A stretch of 40,090 nucleotides of DNA from Sorangium cellulosum (GCA_020720045.1 DYPH01000046.1:1-40090); one strand, 5' to 3'. Shown: positions 20,340 through 33,951, counted from the stretch's first letter. Numbers and translations: made by a program. The notes: generated by a model not told the origin, from the letters alone.

Positions 20340-20798
20340 TCAGTGATGCTCGCTCTTCGTCGTTCCTTCGGGCTTTTCTTTCGCGCCTTCCACAATGCGC
20401 TTCGGAGGCTCAAACCCGCCCGGTGCATGCTTCTCGGACTCGCCAAGGTAGACATGATTGCCGGAAACATCATTGATCTCGTTCTCGCGGCGGGCAGTAT
20501 CGTTCGTCGTGTAGGCGAAAAACACGCCGATGAACATCAGTCCACAGATAAAGATGGTCGCGTTGAACTTGTTGTCATGCCGAAGATGCATGAAGAAGAC
20601 AACTACGAGTGTTGCCTTGACGCTCGCGATCAAAATCGCGATCGCGAGGTTCATCGCGCCGAGGTGGACGTAGCTGAGACCCACAGTGACGAGCGTGAAG
20701 AAAATCAGCCCGCTGAAGATCTTGAGGTAGTGGCTAACCGGCTCGACGTGGGAATGGATCATTCCGTCATCGGCAGCGGCGTGGTGCGAATCACTCAT
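20340..20798 (-). CDS. ctaF: Cytochrome c oxidase subunit IV (prokaryotic COX4_pro / CtaF-like)
   Basis: Three TM helices with YLKIFSGLIFFTLVTVGLSY and NLAIAILIASVKATLVVVFFMHL, typical of bacterial aa3/caa3 subunit IV. Its position follows subunit III. Confidence 0.8.
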   Translation of the reverse strand: MSDSHHAAADDGMIHSHVEPVSHYLKIFSGLIFFTLVTVGLSYVHLGAMNLAIAILIASVKATLVVVFFMHLRHDNKFNATIFICGLMFIGVFFAYTTNDTARRENEINDVSGNHVYLGESEKHAPGGFEPPKRIVEGAKEKPEGTTKSEHH

Positions 20799-20812
20799 GG
20801 TCGGCCTTCAGC

Positions 20813-21562
20813 TCAGTCGATCAGGTAGAGGAGCGGGAAAAGATAGATCCAGACGAGGTCGACGAGGTGCCAATAGAGGGCCGCGATGTCGACGCCTGCG
20901 TAGTATTCCTTGGAGAAGTCGCCGCGCTCATTGCGGCGCCAAATCCAGGTAAGGACACCGATCCCGACGAGGATATGGATCGCATGGATCCCCGTCGCCA
21001 TGAAGTAGATCGAGTAGAAGATATGTGCATTCTCCGGGAGCGCCGGAGATCCTTCAACGAGGTGATGAAGGTGCGGGTGGTAGAAGTGCCCGGGGAGCAG
21101 ACCCGCCTGGAACTTGTGGTTGTACTCGTAGCTCTTGACGCCCAAGAAGATGAGCGCGCACAAGATCGTCAAGAGCAGGTACCGGCTCGTTCCCGCCTTG
21201 CGACCGAGCTGCGCTTCGCGAACAGCAAGTGCCGCGGTGAGGCTTGAGACGAGAAGGACGATCGTATTTCCGGCACCAATGGGGCGGTCGAGTTGGTGCG
21301 CGGCCGCGGAGAACATCTCCGGATACCAGCTGCGGAAGATCCCGTACGCGACGAAGATGCCGCTAAAGAACAGGAGCTCCTGCACGAGGAACGCCCACAT
21401 GCCCACCTTAGCCGCATCAAACTGCTGCTGGGGCGTATCGAAATGGTGCGCCAGGTAGGAGGGATGGGCGTGGTCGTTGTGACCGTGCTCGTCGTGGCCG
21501 TGGTCGTCGTGACCTTCGGGCACTTCCGTGGTGGCGTCGGCGGTTGCCGCTTCGCTGCTCAT
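20813..21562 (-). CDS. ctaE: Cytochrome c oxidase subunit III
   Basis: AHHFDTPQQQFDAAKVGMWAFLVQELLFFSGIFVAY and the following TM pattern are typical of CoxC. The ORF-track start at 21637 is a TTG. The first ATG is 21562 with GGAG upstream. Confidence 0.9.
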   Translation of the reverse strand: MSSEAATADATTEVPEGHDDHGHDEHGHNDHAHPSYLAHHFDTPQQQFDAAKVGMWAFLVQELLFFSGIFVAYGIFRSWYPEMFSAAAHQLDRPIGAGNTIVLLVSSLTAALAVREAQLGRKAGTSRYLLLTILCALIFLGVKSYEYNHKFQAGLLPGHFYHPHLHHLVEGSPALPENAHIFYSIYFMATGIHAIHILVGIGVLTWIWRRNERGDFSKEYYAGVDIAALYWHLVDLVWIYLFPLLYLID

Positions 21563-21728
21563 CGTAGAGACTCCAGGGATTTCTCGGTTCAGAGCCGACT
21601 CCCGGTACTTTGACGCCCGCCGAGTAGACTCGGTCAAGGGCGGCGGGGCGTCTTGTCACGCCATACCTGGGTTCGGAAAAAGAAGGAAGGGGCTGTGGTC
21701 AGCGATGCCGGCCACAGCCTCGGGCCAT

Positions 21729-23417
21729 TCAGTCGTCGGCATCGGCGGGGCGTTCGCCCGGCGCGTACCCTTCGTCGAGTTCCGCCTCAGTCGCGAGGTG
21801 GTAGTCGTAGGGGCCACGGGTGATGACCGGCTGGTCGACGAAGTTGTGGAAGGGAATCGGCGTCGGCGTCTGCCACTCGAGAGCGGCGGAACCCCAAGGA
21901 TTGCGCGGCGCATCCTTCCCCTGCTGGAGGGACTGAACGAACATCACGAGCATCACGAGAAAGCCGAGACCGAGAATCCAGGAGCCAATCGTGGAGACTT
22001 GGTGGAGCGACTGGAACTCGGGAAGGTAGTCGTAATAGCGGCGCGGCATGCCACGCGAGCCGAGAACGAACTGGGAGAGGAAGGTGACGTTGAAGCCGAT
22101 GAAGACGAGCGCAAAAGCGACGCGCGCCATGCCTTCGTTGTACATCTTGCCGGTGAACTTCGGCCACCAGTAGTGGAGCCCGCCGACGAACGCGATGACG
22201 GTACCGCCGACCATGACGTAGTGGAAGTGCGCGACGACGAAGTAGGTGTCGTGGAGGTGCACGTCGACGGCGAGCATCGCGAGGAAGAGCCCCGTGAGAC
22301 CGCCAATCGTGAACAAGAAGATGAAGCCGAGCGCGTAGAGCATCGGAGACTTCAACGAGATCGAGCCCTTGTAGAGCGTCGTGACCCAGTTGAAGACCTT
22401 CACGCCCGACGGGATACCGACGAGGAAGGTGAGGGCCGAGAAGACCATCGTCGAGTACTCGCTCATGCCAGCGACGAACATGTGGTGACCCCACACGAGG
22501 AAGCCGAGGAGCGCGAGACCGAGGGACGACATCGCGATGAAGAAGTATCCGAACGGAGCGCGACGGCTAAACGTGCAGATAATCTCGGAGATGACGCCCA
22601 TGCCCGGGACAATCATGATGTAAACGGCCGGGTGGCTGTAAAACCAGAAGAAGTGCTGGAACAGGACCGGGTCGCCGCCCATCGAAGGGTCGAAGATCCC
22701 GAGGCCGAAGGCGCGCTCAAAGATGAGCAGGAAGAGCGTGATCGCGAGGACCGGGGTCGCGAGGACCTGAATGATCGACGTCGCGTAGAGCGCCCAGATG
22801 AAGAGCGGTAGGCGCTTCCAGCTCATGCCCGGCGCACGCATGGTGTGCACGGTGGCGATGAAGTTGACGCCGGTGAGGATCGAGCTGAACCCGAGGATGA
22901 AGGCCGCCGTGAGCATCGGGATGACGCTCGTGTTGGTGAACTTCGAGGAATACGGAGTGTAGAACGTCCACCCGGTGTCCACGCCGCCGTGGATCATCGT
23001 GTAGAGGCCGAAGACGGCACCGAGCAACCAAACGTAGAAGCTCGTGAGGTTCAGTCGCGGGAACGCGACATCTTTCGTACCGAGCTGAATCGGCAAAAAG
23101 ATATTCCCAAGCGCGCCGGGCACGGCCGGAATGATGAACAAGAAGACCATCACGATGCCGTGCATCGAGAAGACCTTGTTGTACTGCTCCGCCGTCATGA
23201 TGGTACGGCCGGCAGTGAAGAGTTCGAGGCGAACCAACAGCGCGAGGATGCCGCCAAGAAGGAACGCAGCGAGTACCCCGATGAGGTACATGATGCCGAT
23301 CCGCTTGTGATCAAGCGTGAAGAGCCAGGACTTCAGGCCCTTCTCCGCGAGATAACTCTCGTGCGGGTCGTGCGCCTCGGTTTTTCCGCCGAGGCCTGGC
23401 GTTGCTACCGTTGCCAT
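21729..23417 (-). CDS. ctaD: Cytochrome c oxidase subunit I (haem-copper oxidase catalytic subunit)
   Basis: Motifs [18 protein letters not shown]-like [27 protein letters not shown] are present. 562 aa with 12 or more TM helices. Confidence 0.95.
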
Positions 23418-23442
23418 GAGGTGGTTTCCCTGTCTCTTTCCG

Positions 23443-24447
23443 TCACTTCGTCGTCTTTAGGTAAGCAATGATCGCGTCGACCTGCTTTTCCGTAAAGACG
23501 AACGGGGGCATGTTGCCGTTTTCAAAGGTTTTTACGATCTTCGCTTGCGGGCGAAGGATCGATTCGCGCACGTAGTTCTCGTCCACTTTGACCTGCTCGC
23601 CAGTGGTGAGCGTTTCAGTCCGTCCCCAAACCCCTTTAAAGGTCGGTCCGGTTGCCGCGCTTCCATCAACGCTGTGGCACGTGGTGCACCCCTTGCCCTT
23701 GTAGAGCTGCTCGCCCCAAAGCGCCGTGCCGTTCTCTTTGTCTTTGAGTTCGGCGGGGATGTCCTTGATTTTCTTGAGGTGCGCCTCGTATTCGGCCTCA
23801 GTCACGATCTTGATCTTCGAAAGCATCGAGAAGTGACCACCGGCCGTCGGGCCAGCGCCCGCGCCGCAGTACTCGGCGCAGAACACCTGGGCCTCACCAA
23901 GCCGGTTCGGCGTAAAGGCGAGTTGCGAGTACATACCGGGAACGACGTCCTTCTTCAGGCGGAAGGCCGGAACGAAATAGTCGTGAAGAACGTCGCTCGA
24001 CGACATGACCATCTTCACCGGCTTGTTGACCGGCAGATAGAGAGCGTCGCCGGACTCCGGCGTCCCATCTGGGTACTGGTAGCTCCAGTTCCAGCGGGCA
24101 CCACGCACGCGGATTTCGAGGGCATTATCGGCGGCCACCGCATTGCGGATGTACGCCGAATAGCTCACGTGGAACATCCAGACGATGAGGAGCACCGGCG
24201 GGACCGTCCAAGAGAGCTCGAGGGCCGTATTCTCCTGGGTGGGTGCCGCGGATACGCCCTTACGACGCCGGTATTTCCAGACAAAGTAGAGCGTCGCCGC
24301 GGTGATACCGACGGTGAATACGACGCTAAACCAGTAGATAAAATAATAGAGCCAGTCGATGGCGTCCGCCCCGGTGGACATGGCCACCGGGAGCTGGAGC
24401 GTCGAAGAGGCGGGCTCGTTTGCGTCGAGAAGCGGCTGCTGGAACAT
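23443..24447 (-). CDS. ctaC: Cytochrome c oxidase subunit II with fused C-terminal cytochrome c domain (caa3-type)
   Basis: Two N-terminal TM helices. The CuA site is FCAEYCG...GHFSM. The C-terminal CTTCHS haem c site has distal Met (NGNMPPF). M23 (ATG 24381) is an alternative start. Confidence 0.9.
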
Positions 24448-24468
24448 GGGACCTACGTGGGGTACCGG

Positions 24469-25368
24469 TCAGGCGGAGGGGCCGGAGTCTTCGGCCGGCG
24501 AGAGGGGGGTCGGGCTGAGAAGGCCGCCGGTTTTCCGACGCCGCTCCCGTAGCCAGAACAGGGCAAGAGTGCCACCAAGAAGTAACGCGGTGATGACACC
24601 GCCCAGCTTCATGACGTTTTTTGCGACGAGGACGTACTTGGATTGCTTCCCGTCGTACATGAAGCAGTAGAGAATGACCTGATCGATCGTGGAGATGTGG
24701 TTCCCCTTGGAGGCCTCGATAAGGCCGATCTTCAGGTCGTTCGGTGAGTATTCGAGCCCATAAAGGTAGCGGGCGAACTCACCGTTGGGGGCCACCAGCA
24801 TGATGGTGGCCGGGTGACCATACTGGGACGACGCTGCGTCGTACTGGTATTCGAGGCCGGCAGCATCGGCGGCGCGGTCGATGGAGACCTTGTCGCCGAT
24901 GAGAAAGTGCATTCCGGACGCAGGGCCGTCCCCACGACCGTATTTACTGAGAATTTCGTTCCGCTTTCGATTGGTGCGGCCGAGCTCTTCCTTCGGATCG
25001 ATCGAGAGCACGATGACGTCGTACTCTTTGCCGACCGTCCAATCGATCCCCTTGAGCCCCTTCACCGTCGCGTCGAGCACCATGCTGCATAGCATCGGGC
25101 AGGAGTGGTAGGCGAAAACGAGGACCGCCGGTTTCTTGCCGGAAAAGTAAGTGCCTAGCGTGACCGAAGCGCCCGTCTCATCGCGAAAGTTCGCGTCTTT
25201 CGGGAGGATTCCACCGAGGTGTTCTTTGACCCCGACATGCTCCAGCTTCGGACCCTCGGCCACCGGAGTTCCCGGATCCCGCGTGCGGTCGGTGTACTGG
25301 GCGCGCGCAAGAGCGGGCACGAGCAGTAGTGCGAGTGCAGCGAGGAGGGGGAAAATCCGGCGTAGCAT
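24469..25368 (-). CDS. SCO1/SenC family copper chaperone (thioredoxin fold, CxxxC)
   Basis: ORF 24469..25509. Start taken at MLRRIFPLLAALALLLVPALARA (signal/TM). FAYHSCPMLCS copper-binding CxxxC is present. The conserved H is downstream. Its position lies between ACIII and cox genes. Confidence 0.85.
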   Translation of the reverse strand: MLRRIFPLLAALALLLVPALARAQYTDRTRDPGTPVAEGPKLEHVGVKEHLGGILPKDANFRDETGASVTLGTYFSGKKPAVLVFAYHSCPMLCSMVLDATVKGLKGIDWTVGKEYDVIVLSIDPKEELGRTNRKRNEILSKYGRGDGPASGMHFLIGDKVSIDRAADAAGLEYQYDAASSQYGHPATIMLVAPNGEFARYLYGLEYSPNDLKIGLIEASKGNHISTIDQVILYCFMYDGKQSKYVLVAKNVMKLGGVITALLLGGTLALFWLRERRRKTGGLLSPTPLSPAEDSGPSA

Positions 25369-25375
25369 AGGGCGT

Positions 25376-25858
25376 TCAGTGACCGGGGGCGCCGGCGTCT
25401 GCGGTCGGGGGCTTAGAGCCGCCGTCTGCAGTCGGCGAGAGGGTGGTCGATCCATCGACGCCCGCGTCGCTCGTGGTCGGTACAACCGGGGCAGCGGGCG
25501 GCGCGGCAACGACCGGGGTGGCCGTGTCGAAAGTCTTCGGGAGCTGCGCCCAACCCTTCATCGCCCCGAGGTCGTCGGACGGTTGCGGAGCGATCACAAC
25601 GCCCGCTCCTTCGCGGCCGGCAGCGACGCGAGACATCGCCTGGTCGATGGGGATAGGTGCGTTATCAAGCGCCTTCTTCTCTTCTTCACGGAGCCGGATA
25701 AGCGCCTCGGGAGAAGCGAGCTTCTCCTGGGCAGACGCCTCCGCCATTGAGATGAAGTAGGAGTCGAAGACGAACTTGAGTGCGCCCAGGCTGATGACCG
25801 TGCCGAAAGCGACGATCAAGATGACGCGATTGCGGGTTCCGGATTTGTCGAAAGCCAT
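25376..25858 (-). CDS. Hypothetical single-pass membrane protein with Pro/Ala/Thr-rich C-terminal tail (160 aa)
   Basis: N-terminal TM VILIVAFGTVISLGALKFVF is present. It sits in the same orientation tightly between actF and sco. No recognisable motif. Confidence 0.55.
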   Translation of the reverse strand: MAFDKSGTRNRVILIVAFGTVISLGALKFVFDSYFISMAEASAQEKLASPEALIRLREEEKKALDNAPIPIDQAMSRVAAGREGAGVVIAPQPSDDLGAMKGWAQLPKTFDTATPVVAAPPAAPVVPTTSDAGVDGSTTLSPTADGGSKPPTADAGAPGH

Positions 25859-25867
25859 GATCGTGCC

Positions 25868-27298
25868 TCAGGCGTTGTGGAAGTGAATCGCACGCTGAAT
25901 GCGCGGATCCCCGACCGGGATAAGTGCGTGCTTGGTCATCCGGAAGAAGACGTAGGCGAAGTAGATGCCACCAACCGCCATCGGACAGGCGATATCAAGC
26001 CAGTGAAACTCAAACGAGTAGTGTTTGAAGTTCGGCATGACGAACCAGTACCAGTCGACAGCGTGCATCACGAGAAGCCAGGCGGCGCCAAGCTTGAGGC
26101 TCGGGAGTTTGCGCTTCACATTGCGTGAAAGGAGCAAGAAGAAGGGGACAACGAAGTGGAAGACCAGAAGGATGAGGCTAACGCCTGCCCAGGGACCGGC
26201 GCCAGCACCGGGCTCAGCGCTCGCATCCCAACGATAGTGGTAGTAGGTCGTCTCTTCCGGGAGACCGGCGTACCAGATCAAGAGGAACTGGCTGAAGCCG
26301 ATGTAGGCCCAGAAGACGTTGAAGCCGAACATCAACTTCCCGAGATCGTGGAAGTGCTCCACGTTCACGACGCTCTTGAGGTAGCCCGCGTCACGCAGGC
26401 TCATCGTGATGAGGATGATGACCGCGAGGCTGGCGACGGCAGCCGTCGAGAAGACGTATACGCCGAAAATCGTTGAAAACCAGGAGGGGTCGAGCGCCAT
26501 GACCCAGTCGAAGGCGCTGAACGTCAGGCTGAGCGCAAACGCCATCATCGCAAGCGGCGAGGCGGCCTGGGCCCGAAGGGTCAATCCGACTTCCTTCGAC
26601 TTGTCCTGGCGAACGGAGAGGTTGAAGAACATCGTGCCGAGGATGACCCAGGCGAGGATGTAGAAGACGGCACGGCCGTAGAAGAAGTTGAGGTTAAACC
26701 ACCCCTTCTTCTTGTCGAGGGTCTCGACGTGGGCGACGTGATTCGGGTCGTGCCCTTCGTGACCAGCGTGCTCGGCGGTTGCGCCATGCTCAGCTGCGAC
26801 GGCGTGCTCGGGAGCCGCACCGTGCTCTTTGGCAGCCTCTTTGGCTTCCGGCTTCGCTTCGCCGGCGGGGGCCGTGTGCTCTTCCGCGTAGGCCTGCGTC
26901 TCCACGAGGGAGGCGTGGCCGCCCGGGGTGCCAGCAACGGTCTCGTACCAGTCGAAATGCTTGATGTTGATGAGGATCGGGAGCGCGAGTACGGCCATCA
27001 CCGGGAGGCCGCTGGCGAGGAACTCGGCAACGCGACGGACGGTAACACTCCAGCCAGCCGACGTTAGGCGCTGGATGAGCACAAAGAAGAGTGCCCCCAG
27101 CGCGATCGTCAGAATGGTGAAGTAGCCGAAAATGTAGGAGTAAACGAACCGATGAGCGTTCTCCGCCGTCATCGCGCCGGCGACCGCCGTGAGGGCTCCG
27201 ACCGCGCCGATGAAGGCGGCAACTTTCCAGGCAGAACTCCAAGGGCCGCCTTCGCGGATCATGAAGTTCTTTTCGCTAATTTCGACGTTGGAAGCCAT
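25868..27298 (-). CDS. actF: Alternative complex III subunit ActF (NrfD/PsrC-like polytopic membrane protein)
   Basis: 476 aa. Multiple TM helices. The NrfD-like fold is paralogous to the ActC gene at 28653..30107. Gene order follows A-B-C-D-E-F. Confidence 0.85.
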   Translation of the reverse strand: MASNVEISEKNFMIREGGPWSSAWKVAAFIGAVGALTAVAGAMTAENAHRFVYSYIFGYFTILTIALGALFFVLIQRLTSAGWSVTVRRVAEFLASGLPVMAVLALPILINIKHFDWYETVAGTPGGHASLVETQAYAEEHTAPAGEAKPEAKEAAKEHGAAPEHAVAAEHGATAEHAGHEGHDPNHVAHVETLDKKKGWFNLNFFYGRAVFYILAWVILGTMFFNLSVRQDKSKEVGLTLRAQAASPLAMMAFALSLTFSAFDWVMALDPSWFSTIFGVYVFSTAAVASLAVIILITMSLRDAGYLKSVVNVEHFHDLGKLMFGFNVFWAYIGFSQFLLIWYAGLPEETTYYHYRWDASAEPGAGAGPWAGVSLILLVFHFVVPFFLLLSRNVKRKLPSLKLGAAWLLVMHAVDWYWFVMPNFKHYSFEFHWLDIACPMAVGGIYFAYVFFRMTKHALIPVGDPRIQRAIHFHNA

Positions 27299-27312
27299 GT
27301 CGTGGTCCCGGA

Positions 27313-28086
27313 TCAGTGGGCGGAGGCCGCCGGTTTCGGCGCCGAGGCGGCCGGGGCAGCGGAAGGGGCAGACCCGCTCGGTGCGGGGGCCGAAGTCGAT
27401 GCGGACGGCGCCGCGGAAGCCGTTGCCGGGACTGCAGCTGCGGTCGGCGCGGGGGCCGGAGCGGTCGGGTCATCGGGCTTTTCGTCGCCGAGACGCGGGT
27501 TGGCGAGCTGAAGCGCACGGACGTACGCGACAATAGCCCAACGATCGTGAACGCTTAGCATCTGCCCGTAGGGGGGCATGTTGCTCTTGCCATTCTCGAC
27601 GGTCGCGTAGAGCTGTCCGTCCGGCATGTGACGGAGGCGGTCCTGGTGGAAGGTCGGGGGAAGGAAGGCTGCTGCGCCACCGGCCTGGGCGCGTGCGGTG
27701 ACGGCCCCTTTTCCGTTGCCGGTGCCGTCGTGGCAGGGGGTGCAGAAGATGCCGTAGCGTTCTTTGCCACGCTTCAGCATCGGATCCATACCGCCAAAGC
27801 TCGCAACGGATTCTTGTGGAATCGTGAGCACGTAGCCGGAGTTGTCTTCGAGCCGCCCCTTCAGAAGGCGCGGGTCGGTCTCCATTTCGCGAGAGACAGC
27901 ACCTTCAACCGCGGGGCGCATCGTGCGCTTGTCGGCGAAGAACGTGCTCTCGGACTGGATGTCGTAGCGGGGCTGGTCGTACATGTTCCGGATGCCGACG
28001 ATCGGCGAGTCCTTCGACGTTTGACCACGGCACGCGGCGAGGGCCGACGAGGTGAGAATAAGCGCAAAAACGAGTTTGGATCTCAC
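27313..28086 (-). CDS. actE: Alternative complex III subunit ActE (mono-haem cytochrome c lipoprotein)
   Basis: Lipobox LAAC. CTPCH haem motif. Distal Met (NMPPYGQM). An Ala/Pro/Ser-rich C-terminal tail of about 50 aa is present. Its ATG overlaps the actD stop. Confidence 0.85.
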   Translation of the reverse strand: MRSKLVFALILTSSALAACRGQTSKDSPIVGIRNMYDQPRYDIQSESTFFADKRTMRPAVEGAVSREMETDPRLLKGRLEDNSGYVLTIPQESVASFGGMDPMLKRGKERYGIFCTPCHDGTGNGKGAVTARAQAGGAAAFLPPTFHQDRLRHMPDGQLYATVENGKSNMPPYGQMLSVHDRWAIVAYVRALQLANPRLGDEKPDDPTAPAPAPTAAAVPATASAAPSASTSAPAPSGSAPSAAPAASAPKPAASAH

Positions 28087-28649
28087 GGCGCGTCCTCCGA
28101 GACTTCGTCGTCTTTGTCGGCCACGAGTTCGATGTTCGTCGGATGGGTCGCCTCGAGGAGCTTCTTGGTCTTCTCGAGGTTGAACTTCGGGTCGCTGCTC
28201 TCCACGGAGATGAAGAACTTATCGTCCGTCGCCGACGCGAACCGGTCCGAGTTGAAGATCGGGTGGTGGTGACGGGGGAGCTGATTGAGACCAAACATCC
28301 CGAAGACTGCCGTCAGCGCGCTGAAAAGGATGGTGAGTTCGAAGAGAATCGGCACCATCGAAGGGATCGAAAACGCCGGCTTCCCGCCGATGATGAGCGG
28401 GTAGTCGACCCCGTTCATCCACCAAATCATCAGAAACCCGAGCGAAACCCCAGTGATACCGGCGGGGAGAACCAACCAACCGAGGCGGCTGTCAGGAAGT
28501 CCCATCGCTTGATCCATGCCGTGGACCGGGAACGGAGTGTGGGCGTCGAAAGCGGCGTACCCGGCGTCGCGGAGCTTTTCCGCGGCGTGAACACAGGCGC
28601 CGGCCGACTCGTATTCGGCAAGATAGAGCGTCAAAGTCTTATCGGACAT
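28083..28649 (-). CDS. actD: Alternative complex III subunit ActD
   Basis: 188 aa. A soluble N-domain is followed by TM helices (GWLVLPAGITGVSLGFLMIWWM, VPILFELTILFSALTAVFGMFGL). It lies between actC and actE. Confidence 0.8.
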   Translation of the reverse strand: MSDKTLTLYLAEYESAGACVHAAEKLRDAGYAAFDAHTPFPVHGMDQAMGLPDSRLGWLVLPAGITGVSLGFLMIWWMNGVDYPLIIGGKPAFSIPSMVPILFELTILFSALTAVFGMFGLNQLPRHHHPIFNSDRFASATDDKFFISVESSDPKFNLEKTKKLLEATHPTNIELVADKDDEVSEDAP

Positions 28650-28652
28650 AGG

Positions 28653-30107
28653 TCACTCCGCAGGTTGTGCGGCCGGCTCCTCATGGGCGTCTTCGTCGTG
28701 GCCATGGGCGTCGTCGTGAGACGCATGGCTGGGATCCCAGTGGGGATCTGCTTCCGGGAGAGTCGCCTTCACTTCCGCGATTGCAATCATCGGAATCCAC
28801 CGAATGAAGAGCAGGAACAGCGTGAAGAAGAGGCCGAGCGTACCGAAGTAGATGAAGATGTCGATGAGCGTCGGGCGGAAGTAGCCCCAGCTCGACGGAA
28901 GGAAGTCGTGGAAGAGGGACGTCACAATGATGACGAAACGCTCAAACCACATTCCGATGTTGACGAGGATCGACACCACGAAGCTGACGGCGATGTTGTT
29001 GCGGAGCTTCTTCGACCAATAAAGCTGCGGGCTGATGACGTTGCAGCTAACCATGATCCAGTAGGCCCACGCGAACGGCCCGCTTGCACGGTTGTGGATG
29101 AAGACGTGCCGCTCGAAATCGTTGCCCGAGTAGTAGGCGATGAAGAATTCCATCGCGTAGGCGTACCCGACGAGTGATCCGGTCAAGAGGATGATTTTAT
29201 TCATCAACTCGAGATGCTTCTGGGTCACGAGGCTCTTCATGCCGTACACCGCGCGGGTGATGAGCATGAGCGTCATGACCATCGCGAAGCCGGAGAAGAT
29301 GGCGCCAGCGACGAAGTACGGGGGGAAGATCGTCGTGTGCCAGCCCGGGATGACGGAGGTCGCGAAGTCGAAGGAAACGACCGAGTGCACCGAAAGCACG
29401 AGCGGAGTCGAGAGGCCTGCGAGGAGCAGGTAGGCACGCTCGTAGTGCTGCCAGTGCCGGTTTGAAGAGCGCCAACCGAGGGCGAGGGCTCCGTAGACAA
29501 GGCGGCGGACTTTCGTCTTCGCCCGGTCGCGGAAGGTGGCGAGGTCAGGGATGAGCCCGACGTACCAGAACAGGAGCGACACGGTGAAGTAGGTCGAAAC
29601 TGCGAAGACGTCCCAAAGGAGCGGGCTCTTGAAGTTCGGCCAGAGCGCCATCGAGTTCGGGAGCGGCGGCATATAGTAGGCGTACCAAATGCGCCCAACG
29701 TGAATGCCGGGGAAGATCAGTGCGCAGATAACCGCAAAGATCGTCATCGCTTCCGCGAATCGATTGATGGCCGTTCGCCACTTCTGACGGAAGAGGAAGA
29801 GGACGGCCGAGATCAGCGTTCCTGCGTGGCCGATGCCGATCCACCAAACGAAGTTGGTGATATCCCAGGCCCAATAAACGGGGGAATTGTTTCCCCAAAC
29901 GCCGATACCCGTCCAGATCAGGTAGCCGATGGCGGCGCCGAGGATTCCGGTAAAGTTGACGGCGATCAGGAAGCCGATCCACCAGCCACGCGGAGCCTTC
30001 GTTTCGGTGACGACCGCGACCGTTTCGGTGATCGACTTGAAGGTCGTCCCCTCGGCAACGAGCGAAACTTCGCCGAGTTCCTTAATAGGGAGGTTGTGCG
30101 AACTCAT
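28653..30107 (-). CDS. actC: Alternative complex III subunit ActC (NrfD/PsrC-like quinol-interacting membrane subunit)
   Basis: 484 aa polytopic membrane protein. NrfD family pattern. Its ATG shares 1 nt with the actB stop (TGATG). Confidence 0.9.
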
Positions 30108-33100
30108 CAGCCCATCTCCGGATTGAGATTACGGATTTTGCCGAGGTGAGAGGTACGCGGATGCGTGCCAATCTCCGCGAGAAGGCGGTAGGCGCGGTCG
30201 TTTCCGCGGAGGCGAGCGACGCGGCTCGTCGGATCGTTGAGGTCGCCAAAAGCGATCGCTTCCGTCGGGCACGCTTGCATGCAGGCCGACTTGATGTCGC
30301 CGTCCTTGAGGGTGCGCCCTTCGCGTTTCGCGGAGATCTTCCCCTCTTGAATGCGCTGCACGCAGTAAGAACACTTCTCCATGACGCCGCGCATGCGGAC
30401 GGTCACGTTCGGGTTCTTCTGCATGCGCTCAACTTCGGGGATCTCCCCGTCGACGCCGTTGTAGTTCAAGTAATTGAACCGGCGGACCTTGTAGGGGCAG
30501 TTGTTCGCACAGTAGCGGGTGCCGATACAGCGGTTGTACGCGATATCATTGAGACCTTCCGGCGAGTGCTCCGTCGCGTTGACCGGACACACGTTTTCGC
30601 AGGGGGCCTCTTCGCACTGGACGCACGCGACCGGCTGGAAGACGAGCTTCGGATCGTTTTCGTCGATGCCGATGAAGTAGCGGTCGATGCGGAGCCAGGC
30701 CATTTCGCGGCCACGCATGACTTGCTCCTTGCCGACGGCGGGGATGTTGTTCTCCGCTTGGCAGGCGACGACGCAGGCATTGCAACCGGTGCAGGCGTTC
30801 ATGTCGATCGCCATGCCCCACTTGAAGCCGGACGGGTTCGTCGGGGAGCCCTTCGAATAATCGACCGGCTTCCAGAGCGGGAGCACCTTCGGATCCGGGG
30901 TACCGGGTCGCGAGTGCTTCTCGTCCTTTTTGTCTTCGTAAGGGAACTGGGGAAACTTCGGGTTCGCCTTGTACTCGGCGAGCGTCGCGTCGATAGCGAT
31001 CGCGCGCCCTTCCATCGAGGCGTGCTCCTGGGTCTGGACGAAGCGGTAGCGCTTGGTGTCGACGTCGAAGGGGCCGACGGGACCGGTCCGACCGACAAGC
31101 GGCCCCGCCTCGCTCGCCTTGCCGAGATCGGCAAAACGATTGGCGATTCCGGCGATTTCGCCCGGTCCGAGCTTCTGAACCTTGACGCCCGTGGCGAAGC
31201 CGAAGGCGTCGGTTGTGCGGAGCGGCTCAACGAGGAACCCGTGGCGGTCGCCGTAACGACCGATCTCTTGGTAGCCCCAGCCGAGGGTCAACGCGATCGT
31301 GTTGTCCCCCTGCCCTGGCAAGATCCAGACGGCGACATCGATCGGCTGGGCTCCGTCCTTCGTAAACCGGAGGACGTCTCCGCTCTCAACGCCGATCGCT
31401 TTCGCGGTGGTCGGCGAGACGAACGCGGCGTTATCCCAGGAGATTTTGGAAACCGGGCACGGGAGCTCGAGCATCCAGGGGTTGTTCGCGTTGCGCCCGT
31501 CGAAGAGGCGCGAGTCGGGTGCGAACGTCACTTCGAGGCTCTGGGCGCTCGGAGCGTCGGCGCGCTTCGCCTTCTGAAGTTCTGCAGCGATTTCTGCGCT
31601 CTTCGGAGCGGCGGCGATCGCCTTGGTAACGACCGTCGAGAGGACGCCCTTCTTGAGCGCCTCGGCCCACGCCTTGTCGAGGGTTCCGAGGAACCCGCCC
31701 GACTTGACGAGCGTCGCGCGGACGAGCTCGTAGCCCTTGGCCGTCTCGTTCGCGAGGGCGGCAAGGATTTCGATTTCGCTCTTCGCGCCGTGGAGCGGCG
31801 CAATGAGCGGCTGCTGAATCGCGAGGACGCCGGTCTGGCTGCGGAGGTCGCCCCAGGTCTCCAGTTCAAGCGCGAGCGGCACGTGCCAGGTCGAGGCCTT
31901 GGCGGTCTCGTTCTGGTGGGTGGTGACGGCGATGACCGTCTTCGCTTTTTTAAGCGCTTCTGCGAACTTGAGGTCGCTCGGAGCCTGGCGAACCGGGTCA
32001 CCACCGAGGATGATGAGCTGCTCAACCTTGCCTGCCTCGAGGTCCTTTGTGAGGGCCTTGAGGTCGGAAACCTGATCGTCGGCCTGATCCTTGTCGGCGA
32101 CCGGGTAGTAGCTGACCGTCGAACCGTCGTTCAGGAGCGCCTTGTTGATGGCGTGAACGAGGGCGTGAACGCGCGCCGGCTGGCGAGCGCCGGCGACGAC
32201 TACGCTCTTCCCCTTGTTCGCTGCAAGATCCTTGGCGACGGCGGCGATCCAGGTCGCCGGAACGTCGACCTTGGCATCGAGGGAGCCGAGCGGACCGAGG
32301 TCGATCGCGTGCTTGGAGGCGAGCTCCTTCGCGAGCGCGATGGCGTAGGCTTCGACCTGGGAGGACGGGAGGCGGAGGCGGTGATCCGCGGTCGAACCGG
32401 TGACCGTGAGCGACGGCTCGACGACGTAGAGCCGGTTCATCGGGTCGTTCGGCGACTCGCAGCGGCGGCGCTTTGCGAACTGCTTCGCCGCGCGGACCGC
32501 GCCCGCTTCCGTGTCGAAGACGTCGGCGTCGAGGGTGAGAACGATCGCAGCCTGGTCGTAAGCGTAGACCGGGTTGGCCGCTTCGCCGAAGGCGAGCTTC
32601 GTCCCCTGGCGGACGTTCGACTCATTCACCGAAGCGAACGTGTGGAACTGGGCGCCGGAGAGCCGCGCCTTGACGGCATCGCGGAGGCGAAGGAACGTCG
32701 GTGAGATCGACGGCGCAGCGAGGATGCGGAGCTTGGCGCCGTTGCTCGCCGGGAGGCTTGCAACGAATGCCTTGAACTCCTTCTCGAAGGCTTCCCAGGT
32801 GATCTCTTTGCCGGCCGCCGTCGGTGTCGTCGAGCGATCGGGATCGTAGAGGTTCCAGACGAGCGCCTGGGCCATCGCGTCGGTCGCGCCGAGGCTCGTC
32901 GGGTGATCTGGATTCCCCTCGACCTTCGTCGGACGCCCTTCGTGGGCTTCCACAAGGAGACCGAGTGCTTCGCCGCGCAGTTCGCGAACGGTCGCGAAAT
33001 GGTAGGAAAGACCCGGAAGTGCGTACTCCGGCGCCTTCGCGTAGGGGAGGATCTTCTCGATGGGGCGGCGAGCGCACGCAGCGAGCGTGGCCGAGGCGCC

Positions 33101-33328
33101 GGCAAAGAGGAAGAACTCGCGGCGACCGACGCGGGTCACGTCGGTCGGGTCGTTTGCGTTCGCCTTTTTCGGCGGCGTAACGACGTCGACGTCGGACAGC
33201 GATTCTTCAAATTCACGAACCGCGCGGTCCTGAACGGAAGAGGGGTCGTTCTTTTCCCCGAGAGTGCGCCAAGCGATCGGCGCGCCTTCGGAGGCGCTCG
33301 TAATTTCGTAGGGTTTGCGGCGGCTCAT
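30107..33328 (-). CDS. actB: Alternative complex III subunit ActB (fused molybdopterin-oxidoreductase-like B1 domain plus 4Fe-4S ferredoxin B2 domain), TAT-exported
   Basis: ORF 30107..33532. Start taken at MSRRKPYEI (ATG 33328), which overlaps the actA stop. Twin-arginine signal [18 protein letters not shown] is present. Four Cys clusters are present ([44 protein letters not shown]...CMQACP). Confidence 0.9.
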
Positions 33329-33951
33329 CGGTGGCACCCAGAGCAGTGCTGCGGGGGGTGAACTTCGGGGGGCGTCCAGTTTTTCGCCATTTCGGGGCGC
33401 CACTCCATGTTGGTGACCTGATCCTTCGGCCGAAGATTCGGCTTCGGGTCGCGGTGGCACTCGAGGCACCACCCCATGCTCAGCGGCTTGTCCTGGCGCA
33501 CAACCTCCATCTGATCGATGCGGCCGTGGCAAGAAACACAGCCAACTCCGGCAGATACGTGCGCGGAGTGGTTAAAGTAGGCGTGGTCCGGCAACTTGTG
33601 GACCTTGACCCATTCCAGCGGCTCGCCAGAGGCCCACGACTCACGGACCGGCGTAAGACGCCCGCTTTCCGTTTTTACCAGCGAGTGACAGCCCATACAG
33701 GTCTGCGTCGGTGGAATCATCGCGTGCGCCGATTTCTCGACGTTGGCGTGGCAATAGCGGCAGTCCATACCCATCTGGCCTGCGTGCAGCTTGTGGCTGT
33801 ACGGGACCGGTTGAGTTGGCGCGTAGCCGACTTGGAAGTTCTTCGGCGTCACGTAGTACCAGACGCCTCCGACCACGGCCGGACCGAGGAGGCCCAGCAC
33901 AGCGGCGGCGACCAGCGGGAGCTTGTTCAGCGAGCGAGGGAAGAGCTGCAT
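33325..33951 (-). CDS. actA: Alternative complex III subunit ActA (penta-haem cytochrome c)
   Basis: Five CxxCH motifs (CRYCH, CMGCH, CVSCH, CLECH, CSGCH). N-terminal TM anchor. Start at MQLFPRSL (ATG 33951). Confidence 0.9.
   Translation of the reverse strand: MQLFPRSLNKLPLVAAAVLGLLGPAVVGGVWYYVTPKNFQVGYAPTQPVPYSHKLHAGQMGMDCRYCHANVEKSAHAMIPPTQTCMGCHSLVKTESGRLTPVRESWASGEPLEWVKVHKLPDHAYFNHSAHVSAGVGCVSCHGRIDQMEVVRQDKPLSMGWCLECHRDPKPNLRPKDQVTNMEWRPEMAKNWTPPEVHPPQHCSGCHR

Follow-up and report, generated by a model that had tools for sequence, protein, structure and literature searches.

Do the histidine-rich segments that recur on several membrane subunits of one respiratory gene cluster serve a single, shared function? 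The question arises from the window analyzed here, a 40,090-nucleotide stretch of Sorangium cellulosum DNA (GCA_020720045.1 DYPH01000046.1:1-40090) that carries genes for alternative complex III (ACIII) followed by genes for a caa3-type cytochrome oxidase. The original prediction, made from the DNA alone, had noted His/Asp-rich segments on ActC, ActF, CoxC and CoxD and proposed a common role for them in metal capture, proton collection or contacts between the two complexes. All four segments are indeed present on the minus strand, with 5–9 His per 25 residues. The single function did not hold up: three of the segments are traits of their protein families, and the fourth, in ActF, is predicted to lie on the opposite face of the membrane. 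The reading that we favor, at about even chances, is that of an ordinary ACIII-caa3 operon in which three family-trait tails on the cytoplasmic (N) side likely act as proton buffers or antennae, two segments on the periplasmic (P) side stand apart, and no single device unites them.

The richest 25-residue stretches hold 6 His in ActC (residues 454–478), 6 in ActF (residues 171–195, HGATAEHAGHEGHDPNHVAHVETLD), 9 in CoxC (HDDHGHDEHGHNDHAHPSYLAHHFD, 36% His) and 5 in CoxD (residues 3–27). The maxima for the other proteins of the cluster are 4 in CoxA, 3 in ActB and ActD, 2 in ActE, SCO1 and CoxB, and 1 in ActG. To these we add a fifth segment, which the original prediction did not list, in the loop between transmembrane helices (TM) 3 and 4 of CoxC (Table 1). 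Local His content in the window is 24–36%. All of them are rich in both His and Asp/Glu and mostly poor in Lys and Arg, and the ActF insert is rich in Ala as well. The ActC tail contains a conserved PEADPH motif, and the ActF TM3-TM4 loop closes after its insert with the conserved end HEGHDPNHVAHVETLDKKK. Two of the segments include in-frame tandem repeats: 15 nucleotides in 3.1 copies (21469-21514), encoding the GHDxH units of CoxC, and 21 nucleotides in 2.2 copies (28682-28728) in the ActC tail. His enrichment of this degree is far above chance for proteins with cores of ~2% His; the proper null is the family trait. The segments are probably disordered, although among the structural models disorder is predicted for the ActF insert only.

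The sidedness of the segments constrains what they could do. In Rhodothermus marinus, ActC and ActF each have both ends in the cytoplasm. Asp191 and Asp197 of ActC are listed as half-channel residues, and Glu450 is among those of a cytoplasmic proton half-channel (Sousa et al., 2018; PMC5928083). Glu445 of the window ActC, within the sequence IAEVK, aligns with this residue, and the ActC tail begins 3 residues after it. This places the tail in the cytoplasm and, in sequence, next to a proposed proton entrance. His88, Arg100 and Glu103 of R. marinus ActF are likewise cytoplasmic half-channel residues (PMC5928083), and in our alignment they fall in the TM2-TM3 loop. With both the N-terminus and the TM2-TM3 loop cytoplasmic, the TM3-TM4 loop of ActF should be periplasmic. 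This loop departs from the ActC/PsrC fold and has no quinol pocket, and ActF itself is peripheral and makes only minor contacts (PMC5928083). It is, in other words, a degenerate, peripheral 'quinol-site' loop and a permissive, periplasm-exposed site of ACIII.

In CoxC, Lys/Arg-rich loops (VREAQLGRKA, RRNERGDFSKE) alternate with Lys/Arg-poor ones. The pattern fits the positive-inside rule if the N-terminus is cytoplasmic and the TM3-TM4 loop periplasmic. The side of the loop has independent support, since several homologues (P0477, P0483 and P0501) hold a whole cytochrome c domain (CxxCH) in it, and only the periplasm can house a domain of this kind. CoxD has three hydrophobic helices and, after TM2, a basic loop (MHLRHDNK); these point to a cytoplasmic N-terminus, in agreement with the accepted topology of CyoD. 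We infer that the ActC C-tail and the N-tails of CoxC and CoxD are on the N side and that the ActF insert and the CoxC TM3-TM4 loop are on the P side. Hence the segments originally grouped together do not share a face: the published R. marinus topology (PMC5928083), the positive-inside pattern and the cytochrome c inserts set the ActF loop apart from the other three. In-frame fusions of ActC to ActD through the ActC tail also occur, in a Vicinamibacteria metagenome-assembled genome (MAG; locus L006) and in a MAG labelled 'Acidimicrobiia' (locus L009), with the open reading frame (ORF) running from ~9900 onward; they fit a cytoplasmic ActC C-terminus adjoining the ActD N-terminus.

We compared the segments with those of relatives in 80 loci from a scan of a genome collection with an ActC alignment, covering Myxococcota, Acidobacteriota, Planctomycetota, Verrucomicrobiota, Ignavibacteriota/Kapaibacteriota, Rhodothermota/Balneolales, Bacteroidota and others. 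Orthologues were found by phmmer on stop-to-stop ORFs and then aligned. Past the IAEVK anchor, the ActC tails of 77 loci from at least 8 phyla have a median of 23 residues and 4 His, and 84% of them have at least 3 His. The enrichment is specific to this end of the protein, with 15.3% His in the tail versus 2.0% in the core and 1.8% in the N-terminal cytoplasmic tail, which served as a within-protein control. The motif ADPH opens 45 of the 77 tails. Tails of the 120 closest ActC homologues conform to GVLPEADPHH-(H/D/E/G-rich)-HEPAAAEAE; their median His count is 6, and Lys and Arg are almost absent. The solved ActC proteins of ACIII (6F0K from R. marinus, 6BTM from Flavobacterium johnsoniae, and 8K9E and 6LOD from Chloroflexota) come from operons with the same gene order as the window, and the PEADPH opening of the window tail is shared with known ACIII ActC. 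The solved sequences also end in His-containing tails: ...HFYETHGDGHS in R. marinus, ...AGHGAHGHGHE in the Chloroflexota species and ...NKDSHH in F. johnsoniae. The window tail exceeds them in length and acidity, with 37 aa, 6 His and 11 Asp/Glu. An AlphaFold model of ActC gives predicted local distance difference test (pLDDT) scores <50 at residues 463-484, but its mean of only 61, from a shallow and low-diversity alignment, makes this weak support for disorder. Long tails were also seen elsewhere in the survey. For example, locus L049 (Polyangium sp. 6x1) has one of 56 aa with 7 His and 23 Asp/Glu, and locus L024 (a Polyangiaceae MAG) one of 97 aa with 17 His and 44 Asp/Glu, in which (HDHDHGD)n is followed by poly-Asp/Ala.

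The N-termini of CoxD and CoxC have a similarly wide distribution. In 37 loci from all sampled phyla, about 21 residues precede TM1 of CoxD, with a median of 4 His (20% His), versus 3% His in the periplasmic C-tails of the same proteins. In all of the 120 closest CoxC homologues, the conserved HPxYLAHHF motif is preceded by an N-terminus with abundant His, Asp and Gly. Among the best 150 representatives at 50% identity, the 110 with a TM1 anchor have N-tails whose median length is 39 residues and whose median His count is 7; at least 5 His are found in 84% of them. Twenty-six of the 42 CoxC matches in the survey loci are of an HHF...QQF type with a median of 5 His, and the His-rich N-tails are strongest in Planctomycetota, Myxococcota, Acidobacteriota and one Rhodothermales genome. 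CoxA N-termini, too, are moderately His-enriched across loci (9.3% His), as in SESHGAEDHGHGHDDHHQE of locus L001 and in loci L019, L021 and L023; the CoxA N-terminus of the window (23328-23417) has only AHDPHE.

Such tails reach as far as cytochrome bo3 of Escherichia coli, in which CyoC is a subunit III of the same type as CoxC, with five transmembrane helices (5-TMH), and CyoD presumably belongs to COX4_pro, the family of CoxD. CyoC has 7 His within its first 20 residues, and CyoD, which opens with MSHSTDHSGASHGS / MSHSTDHSGASHG, has 3 within its first 12 (a sequence confirmed in the PDB). In some cryo-electron microscopy (cryo-EM) entries the CyoC chain starts at A21 and the CyoD chain at G13 or S14, which suggests that their His-rich starts were left unmodelled. 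Unlike bo3, the oxidase of the window is of the caa3 type, a cytochrome c oxidase that is tied to ACIII, and its CoxC N-tail is longer than that of CyoC, at ~41 aa with three tandem GHDxH units. Mycobacterium smegmatis CtaE, the nearest solved chain, aligns with CoxC only from TM1 onward. By alignment, then, the ActC C-tail and the N-tails of CoxC and CoxD are ancient, family-wide traits, found across many phyla and, for the two oxidase subunits, in CyoC and CyoD of E. coli.

The two periplasmic segments have other histories. The CoxC TM3-TM4 loop exceeds 60 residues in 98 of 104 representatives, with a median of 169. It takes up further pairs of transmembrane helices, stretches rich in His and acidic residues, or an entire cytochrome c domain; such inserts were also present in loci L031, L041, L058 and L080. 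Comparison of these sequences identifies the loop as a general insertion hot spot of the 5-TMH subunit III family. The ActF TM3-TM4 loop is 87 aa long in the window versus 22-28 aa in Rhodothermales and most other sampled loci. In most phyla it has 22-23 residues with 2-4 His and a consensus like LHDLFHWTHxxxVxxDxLLxxK. In all of the 120 closest (Polyangia-type) homologues the loop has 71-164 residues (median 103) and a median of 13 His, with a composition of 24% Ala, 12.5% His, 12.5% Gly, 9.6% Pro and 7.2% Glu. Units such as APADHAA and AxEHGA recur often in the insert, which has two semi-conserved blocks, HGSISLITPAYAQEHA and EHAxHEAHALIHxxxMAKKS. An AlphaFold2 model of ActF from a 72-sequence alignment is all-helical with a mean pLDDT of 83.9, and residues 125-180 have pLDDT <50 and no secondary structure. 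The ActF insert is thus a clade-specific periplasmic addition, and probably a disordered one. The expectation that the extensions would not be shared by orthologues across many phyla holds for ActF outside its own clade, where the loop is short, and fails for the other three. The original prediction had itself named family-wide extensions and placement on opposite membrane faces as observations that would speak against a common role, and both were largely found: the tails are family-wide and the ActF segment is on the other face.

A role of the segments in contacts between ACIII and the oxidase is very improbable on this evidence. The two complexes do form supercomplexes. In F. johnsoniae the oxidase contact is reported to run through a 5-TMH subunit III (PMC8361435), and in R. 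marinus subunit I/III docks beside ActC (PMC5928083). However, ActC tails are equally rich in His with or without adjacent oxidase genes (median 4 vs 4, p=0.52), and the His counts of ActC and CoxC are uncorrelated (rho -0.08); it was on these two results that we rejected the contact role. Furthermore, E. coli bo3 has its His-rich CyoC and CyoD N-termini without an ACIII partner, ActF is peripheral and distant from the docked oxidase, and the segments are all acidic and would repel each other.

Is there a function at all? The segments could be low-complexity sequence produced by DNA slippage and tolerated at permissive, exposed termini and loops, which is common in myxobacteria. Several observations agree with this explanation. 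Two segments contain in-frame tandem repeats, relatives show extreme expansions such as the (HDHDHGD)n tail of locus L024, and the segments change fast in length and sequence. The ActF loop is at a peripheral, degenerate site, the CoxC N-tail is missing in some orthologues, and low-complexity regions are exceptionally prevalent in myxobacteria (PMC6821194). Against slippage as the whole cause, His enrichment is kept over at least 8 phyla and in low-GC (guanine plus cytosine) genomes, and it is position-specific, as the opposite termini of ActC and CoxD show. Other linkers of the operon, such as the ActE C-tail, are rich in Ala, Pro and Ser instead. His positions are also nearly fixed within clusters of 90% identity, the exceptions being changes from His to Tyr in one ActC and one CoxD member and from His to Arg in one ActF member; apart from these, members of a cluster differ by short indels and by occasional substitutions at non-His positions within the low-complexity sequence. 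Neutral expansion explains the lineage-specific lengthening and not the conserved, position-specific His enrichment, and we regard the absence of any specific function as unlikely.

A composition bias driven by GC content was considered and rejected, as the correlation with ActC tail His is slight (rho 0.23 only) and taxa with 35-49% GC keep 3-4 His in the tail. A control that counted His-rich stretches in the remaining long ORFs of the survey loci proved invalid, because greedy picking took antisense shadow ORFs rich in His and Arg; it was replaced by the opposite termini and core of the same proteins. Because the His enrichment is position-specific, independent of GC content and conserved while the sequence turns over, the composition of the segments appears to be under selection rather than subject to pure slippage drift. 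The view that they are not a chance feature is borne out in this sense, since it is the His plus Asp/Glu composition that is kept across phyla.

Many carboxylates and imidazoles without Lys or Arg make up the composition reportedly ascribed to proton-collecting antennae by Gutman and Nachliel and by Brzezinski and Ädelroth. The tails of the window have this composition, a cluster of His and carboxylates lacking Lys and Arg, and three of them are placed on the N side. Known antennae, such as the surface His/carboxylate clusters at the D-pathway entrance of cytochrome c oxidase, are ordered and have been defined kinetically and structurally, whereas the window segments are flexible tails, known from sequence, and two of the five face the periplasm. 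With modest confidence, our best guess is that the cytoplasmic tails serve as a proton-collecting antenna or buffer. Tail carboxylates would attract protons and tail imidazoles, with a pKa near 6-7, would hold them. The tails would do so beside the surfaces of proton uptake, at the half-channel entrance of ActC and, in the oxidase, on the N-side face near subunits I, III and IV. The periplasmic segments could buffer proton release or bind divalent metals. In two of the family-wide tails, those of ActC and CoxC, short in-frame tandem duplications have added a modest extra length in this genome. We favor flexible N-side proton buffers or antennae because the ActC tail adjoins the half-channel residue and because there are precedents in subunit III and QcrB. 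In cytochrome c oxidase, a loop of subunit III lies near the entry of the D pathway, and the pH dependence of proton uptake is shifted once this subunit has been removed (PMC8361435). In the M. smegmatis III2IV2 supercomplex, a proton-collecting antenna made up of protonatable groups in a QcrB loop has been suggested for the D channel (PMC11189923).

Several observations weigh against this proton-buffer reading. The CoxC N-tail is not His-rich in loci L063 (MSQAKLAHHF), L040 and L018 and would thus be dispensable. A similar His-rich composition occurs on the periplasmic face, in the ActF insert and the CoxC loop, where an antenna for proton uptake makes no sense. The His-rich parts were apparently left out of some cryo-EM chains, and the ActF insert is predicted to be disordered. 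Across genomes, His counts are mostly uncorrelated (CoxC-CoxD rho 0.11 and ActC-ActF rho 0.07, besides the ActC-CoxC value); those of ActC and CoxD correlate with rho 0.50 (p=0.002) without phylogenetic correction. Finally, His/Asp-rich low-complexity regions of prokaryotes are statistically tied to metal binding, and low-complexity sequence is unusually abundant in myxobacteria (PMC6821194).

The last point introduces the main rival, which is that the segments bind divalent metals such as Zn, Ni, Co or Cu(II), for buffering or sensing in the cytoplasm and for capture of Cu or Zn in the periplasm near the oxidase and the co-encoded SCO1. His and Asp/Glu without Lys or Arg are the classic make-up of metal-coordinating low-complexity sequence, and metal-binding proteins are enriched for such sequence (PMC6821194). 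In favor of this rival, His makes up 36% of the CoxC run, (A/P)xEH(G/A)A units recur in the ActF insert, with a clade median of 13 His, and SCO1 is encoded in the cluster. Against it, CuA and CuB are loaded from the periplasm, and three of the five segments are cytoplasmic. The segments also lack the Cys or Met expected for Cu(I). Other His-rich metal-binding regions are found in HypB, SlyD and the ZnuA loop. Low-complexity regions of this kind in cobalamin-biosynthesis and TonB-dependent receptor proteins are, like the window segments, rich in His, Asp and Glu, disordered and fast-evolving (PMC6821194). Their His density is higher, however, at about 53% in the cobalamin-linked regions versus 15-20% in our orthologues (PMC6821194), and the hosts of the window segments are respiratory membrane subunits without a known role in metal trafficking. 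The ACIII literature that we searched reports no metal site at the tails. Metal binding is therefore a possibility that we rate well below the proton-buffer reading, and it is most plausible for the two periplasmic segments.

For this operon the result is of small import, as its tails are what the protein families normally carry. The broader pattern, with position-specific His at the cytoplasmic termini of ActC and subunits III, IV and partly I from E. coli to Planctomycetes, is mildly useful. We found no paper discussing these His-rich tails in the literature on ACIII and on oxidase subunits III and IV, and the pattern across families may have been previously unremarked. As a speculative generalization, and one that we think is probably too bold, the disordered His/carboxylate appendages could form a conserved N-side module for proton uptake in many phyla, made up of the ActC tail and the N-termini of oxidase subunits I, III and IV. 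In the same scheme the Polyangia-specific ActF insert would be a distinct periplasmic module for Cu/Zn binding or buffering of proton release. If the tails do tune proton delivery, a flexible antenna element would be added to models of proton uptake.

The genes around the segments (Table 1) are those of a normal ACIII-caa3 operon and not of a new kind of system; the ActF insert is its sole clade-specific variant, and the segments are not one operon-specific device. The ActC gene is adjoined on the same strand by an ActB-like ORF and by ActD, ActE and ActF, the arrangement of an actABCDEF-type cluster. The nearest named relatives are Labilithrix, Pendulispora and Polyangiaceae MAGs, which points to an uncultured myxobacterium of Polyangia type as the source.

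Table 1. Genes and His-rich segments of the ACIII-caa3 cluster, in window coordinates (E, expectation value).
Feature	Position	Strand	Evidence or content
ACIII operon then caa3 cytochrome oxidase operon	20340-33532	minus	ORFs, Pfam, PDB homology
actB	30107-33532	minus	ActB-like ORF, upstream of actC
actC	28653-30107	minus	Pfam NrfD E=5e-24; 6f0k_C E=3e-204; 6btm_C E=2.5e-172
ActC C-terminal tail (predicted cytoplasmic), residues 448-484	28656..28766	minus	37 aa: 6 His, 11 Asp/Glu, 0 Lys/Arg
actD	28083-28649	minus	PF11821, E=5e-67
actE	27313-28086	minus	cytochrome c
actF	25868-27298	minus	6f0k_F E=1.4e-71, match in two stretches, insert between
ActF TM3-TM4 loop (predicted periplasmic), residues 112-198	26705..26965	minus	87 aa, 11 His
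ActF predicted-disordered insert, residues 125-180	26759-26926	minus	AlphaFold
actG-like ORF	25376-25858	minus	ORF call
sco1	24469-25509 as longest ORF	minus	Pfam
coxB	23443-24447	minus	C-terminal cytochrome c domain
coxA	21729-23417	minus	ORF, Pfam/PDB set
coxC	20813-21562	minus	Pfam COX3 E=1.7e-17
CoxC N-terminus (predicted cytoplasmic), residues 1-41	21440..21562	minus	MSSEAATADATTEVPEGHDDHGHDEHGHNDHAHPSYLAHHF; 9 His; ends in conserved HPxYLAHHF motif
CoxC TM3-TM4 loop (predicted periplasmic), residues 143-180	21023..21136	minus	KSYEYNHKFQAGLLPGHFYHPHLHHLVEGSPALPENAH; 7 His; fifth segment
coxD	20340-20798	minus	COX4_pro PF03626 E=4.4e-14, residues 26-93
CoxD N-terminus (predicted cytoplasmic), residues 1-23	20730..20798	minus	MSDSHHAAADDGMIHSHVEPVSH; 5 His

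The assignment of CoxC to the 5-TMH subunit III type comes from its best PDB matches, the 5-TMH chains 6adq_G, 7q21_E, 9ufb_C, 6kob_C and 1fft_C, which align from TM1 to the C-terminus, and from an agreeing hydropathy profile. Its closest solved kin are thus the five-helix subunit III chains of actinobacterial CtaE, CyoC and QoxC. We fixed the CoxC start at M26 of a longer ORF (window position 21562), since this gives 249 aa, as in near-identical public CoxC sequences. A PDB sequence search with CoxD gave no match; its three helices are taken from the hydropathy profile. The actG-like ORF had no Pfam match. Its C-terminal half is Ala/Pro-rich, and it overlaps the longest sco1 ORF by ~130 nucleotides. 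The true sco1 start is probably downstream of that of the longest ORF, near MLRRIFPLLAALALLL.

Other low-complexity ends in the cluster differ from the His-rich segments. The ActE C-terminus (~27313-27480) is an Ala/Pro/Ser-rich tail, PAPAPTAAAVPATASAAPSASTSAPAPSGSAPSAAPAASAPKPAASAH, with one terminal His, so that the linkers of the operon are not uniformly His-rich. CoxD has a periplasmic C-terminal extension of ~55 residues (residues 97-152; 20343-20510) that ends in ...KSEHH. In CoxD orthologues, this C-tail is highly variable low-complexity sequence with 3% His overall, Ala/Pro/Ser-rich in Polyangiaceae, and several of the tails end in 1-2 His.

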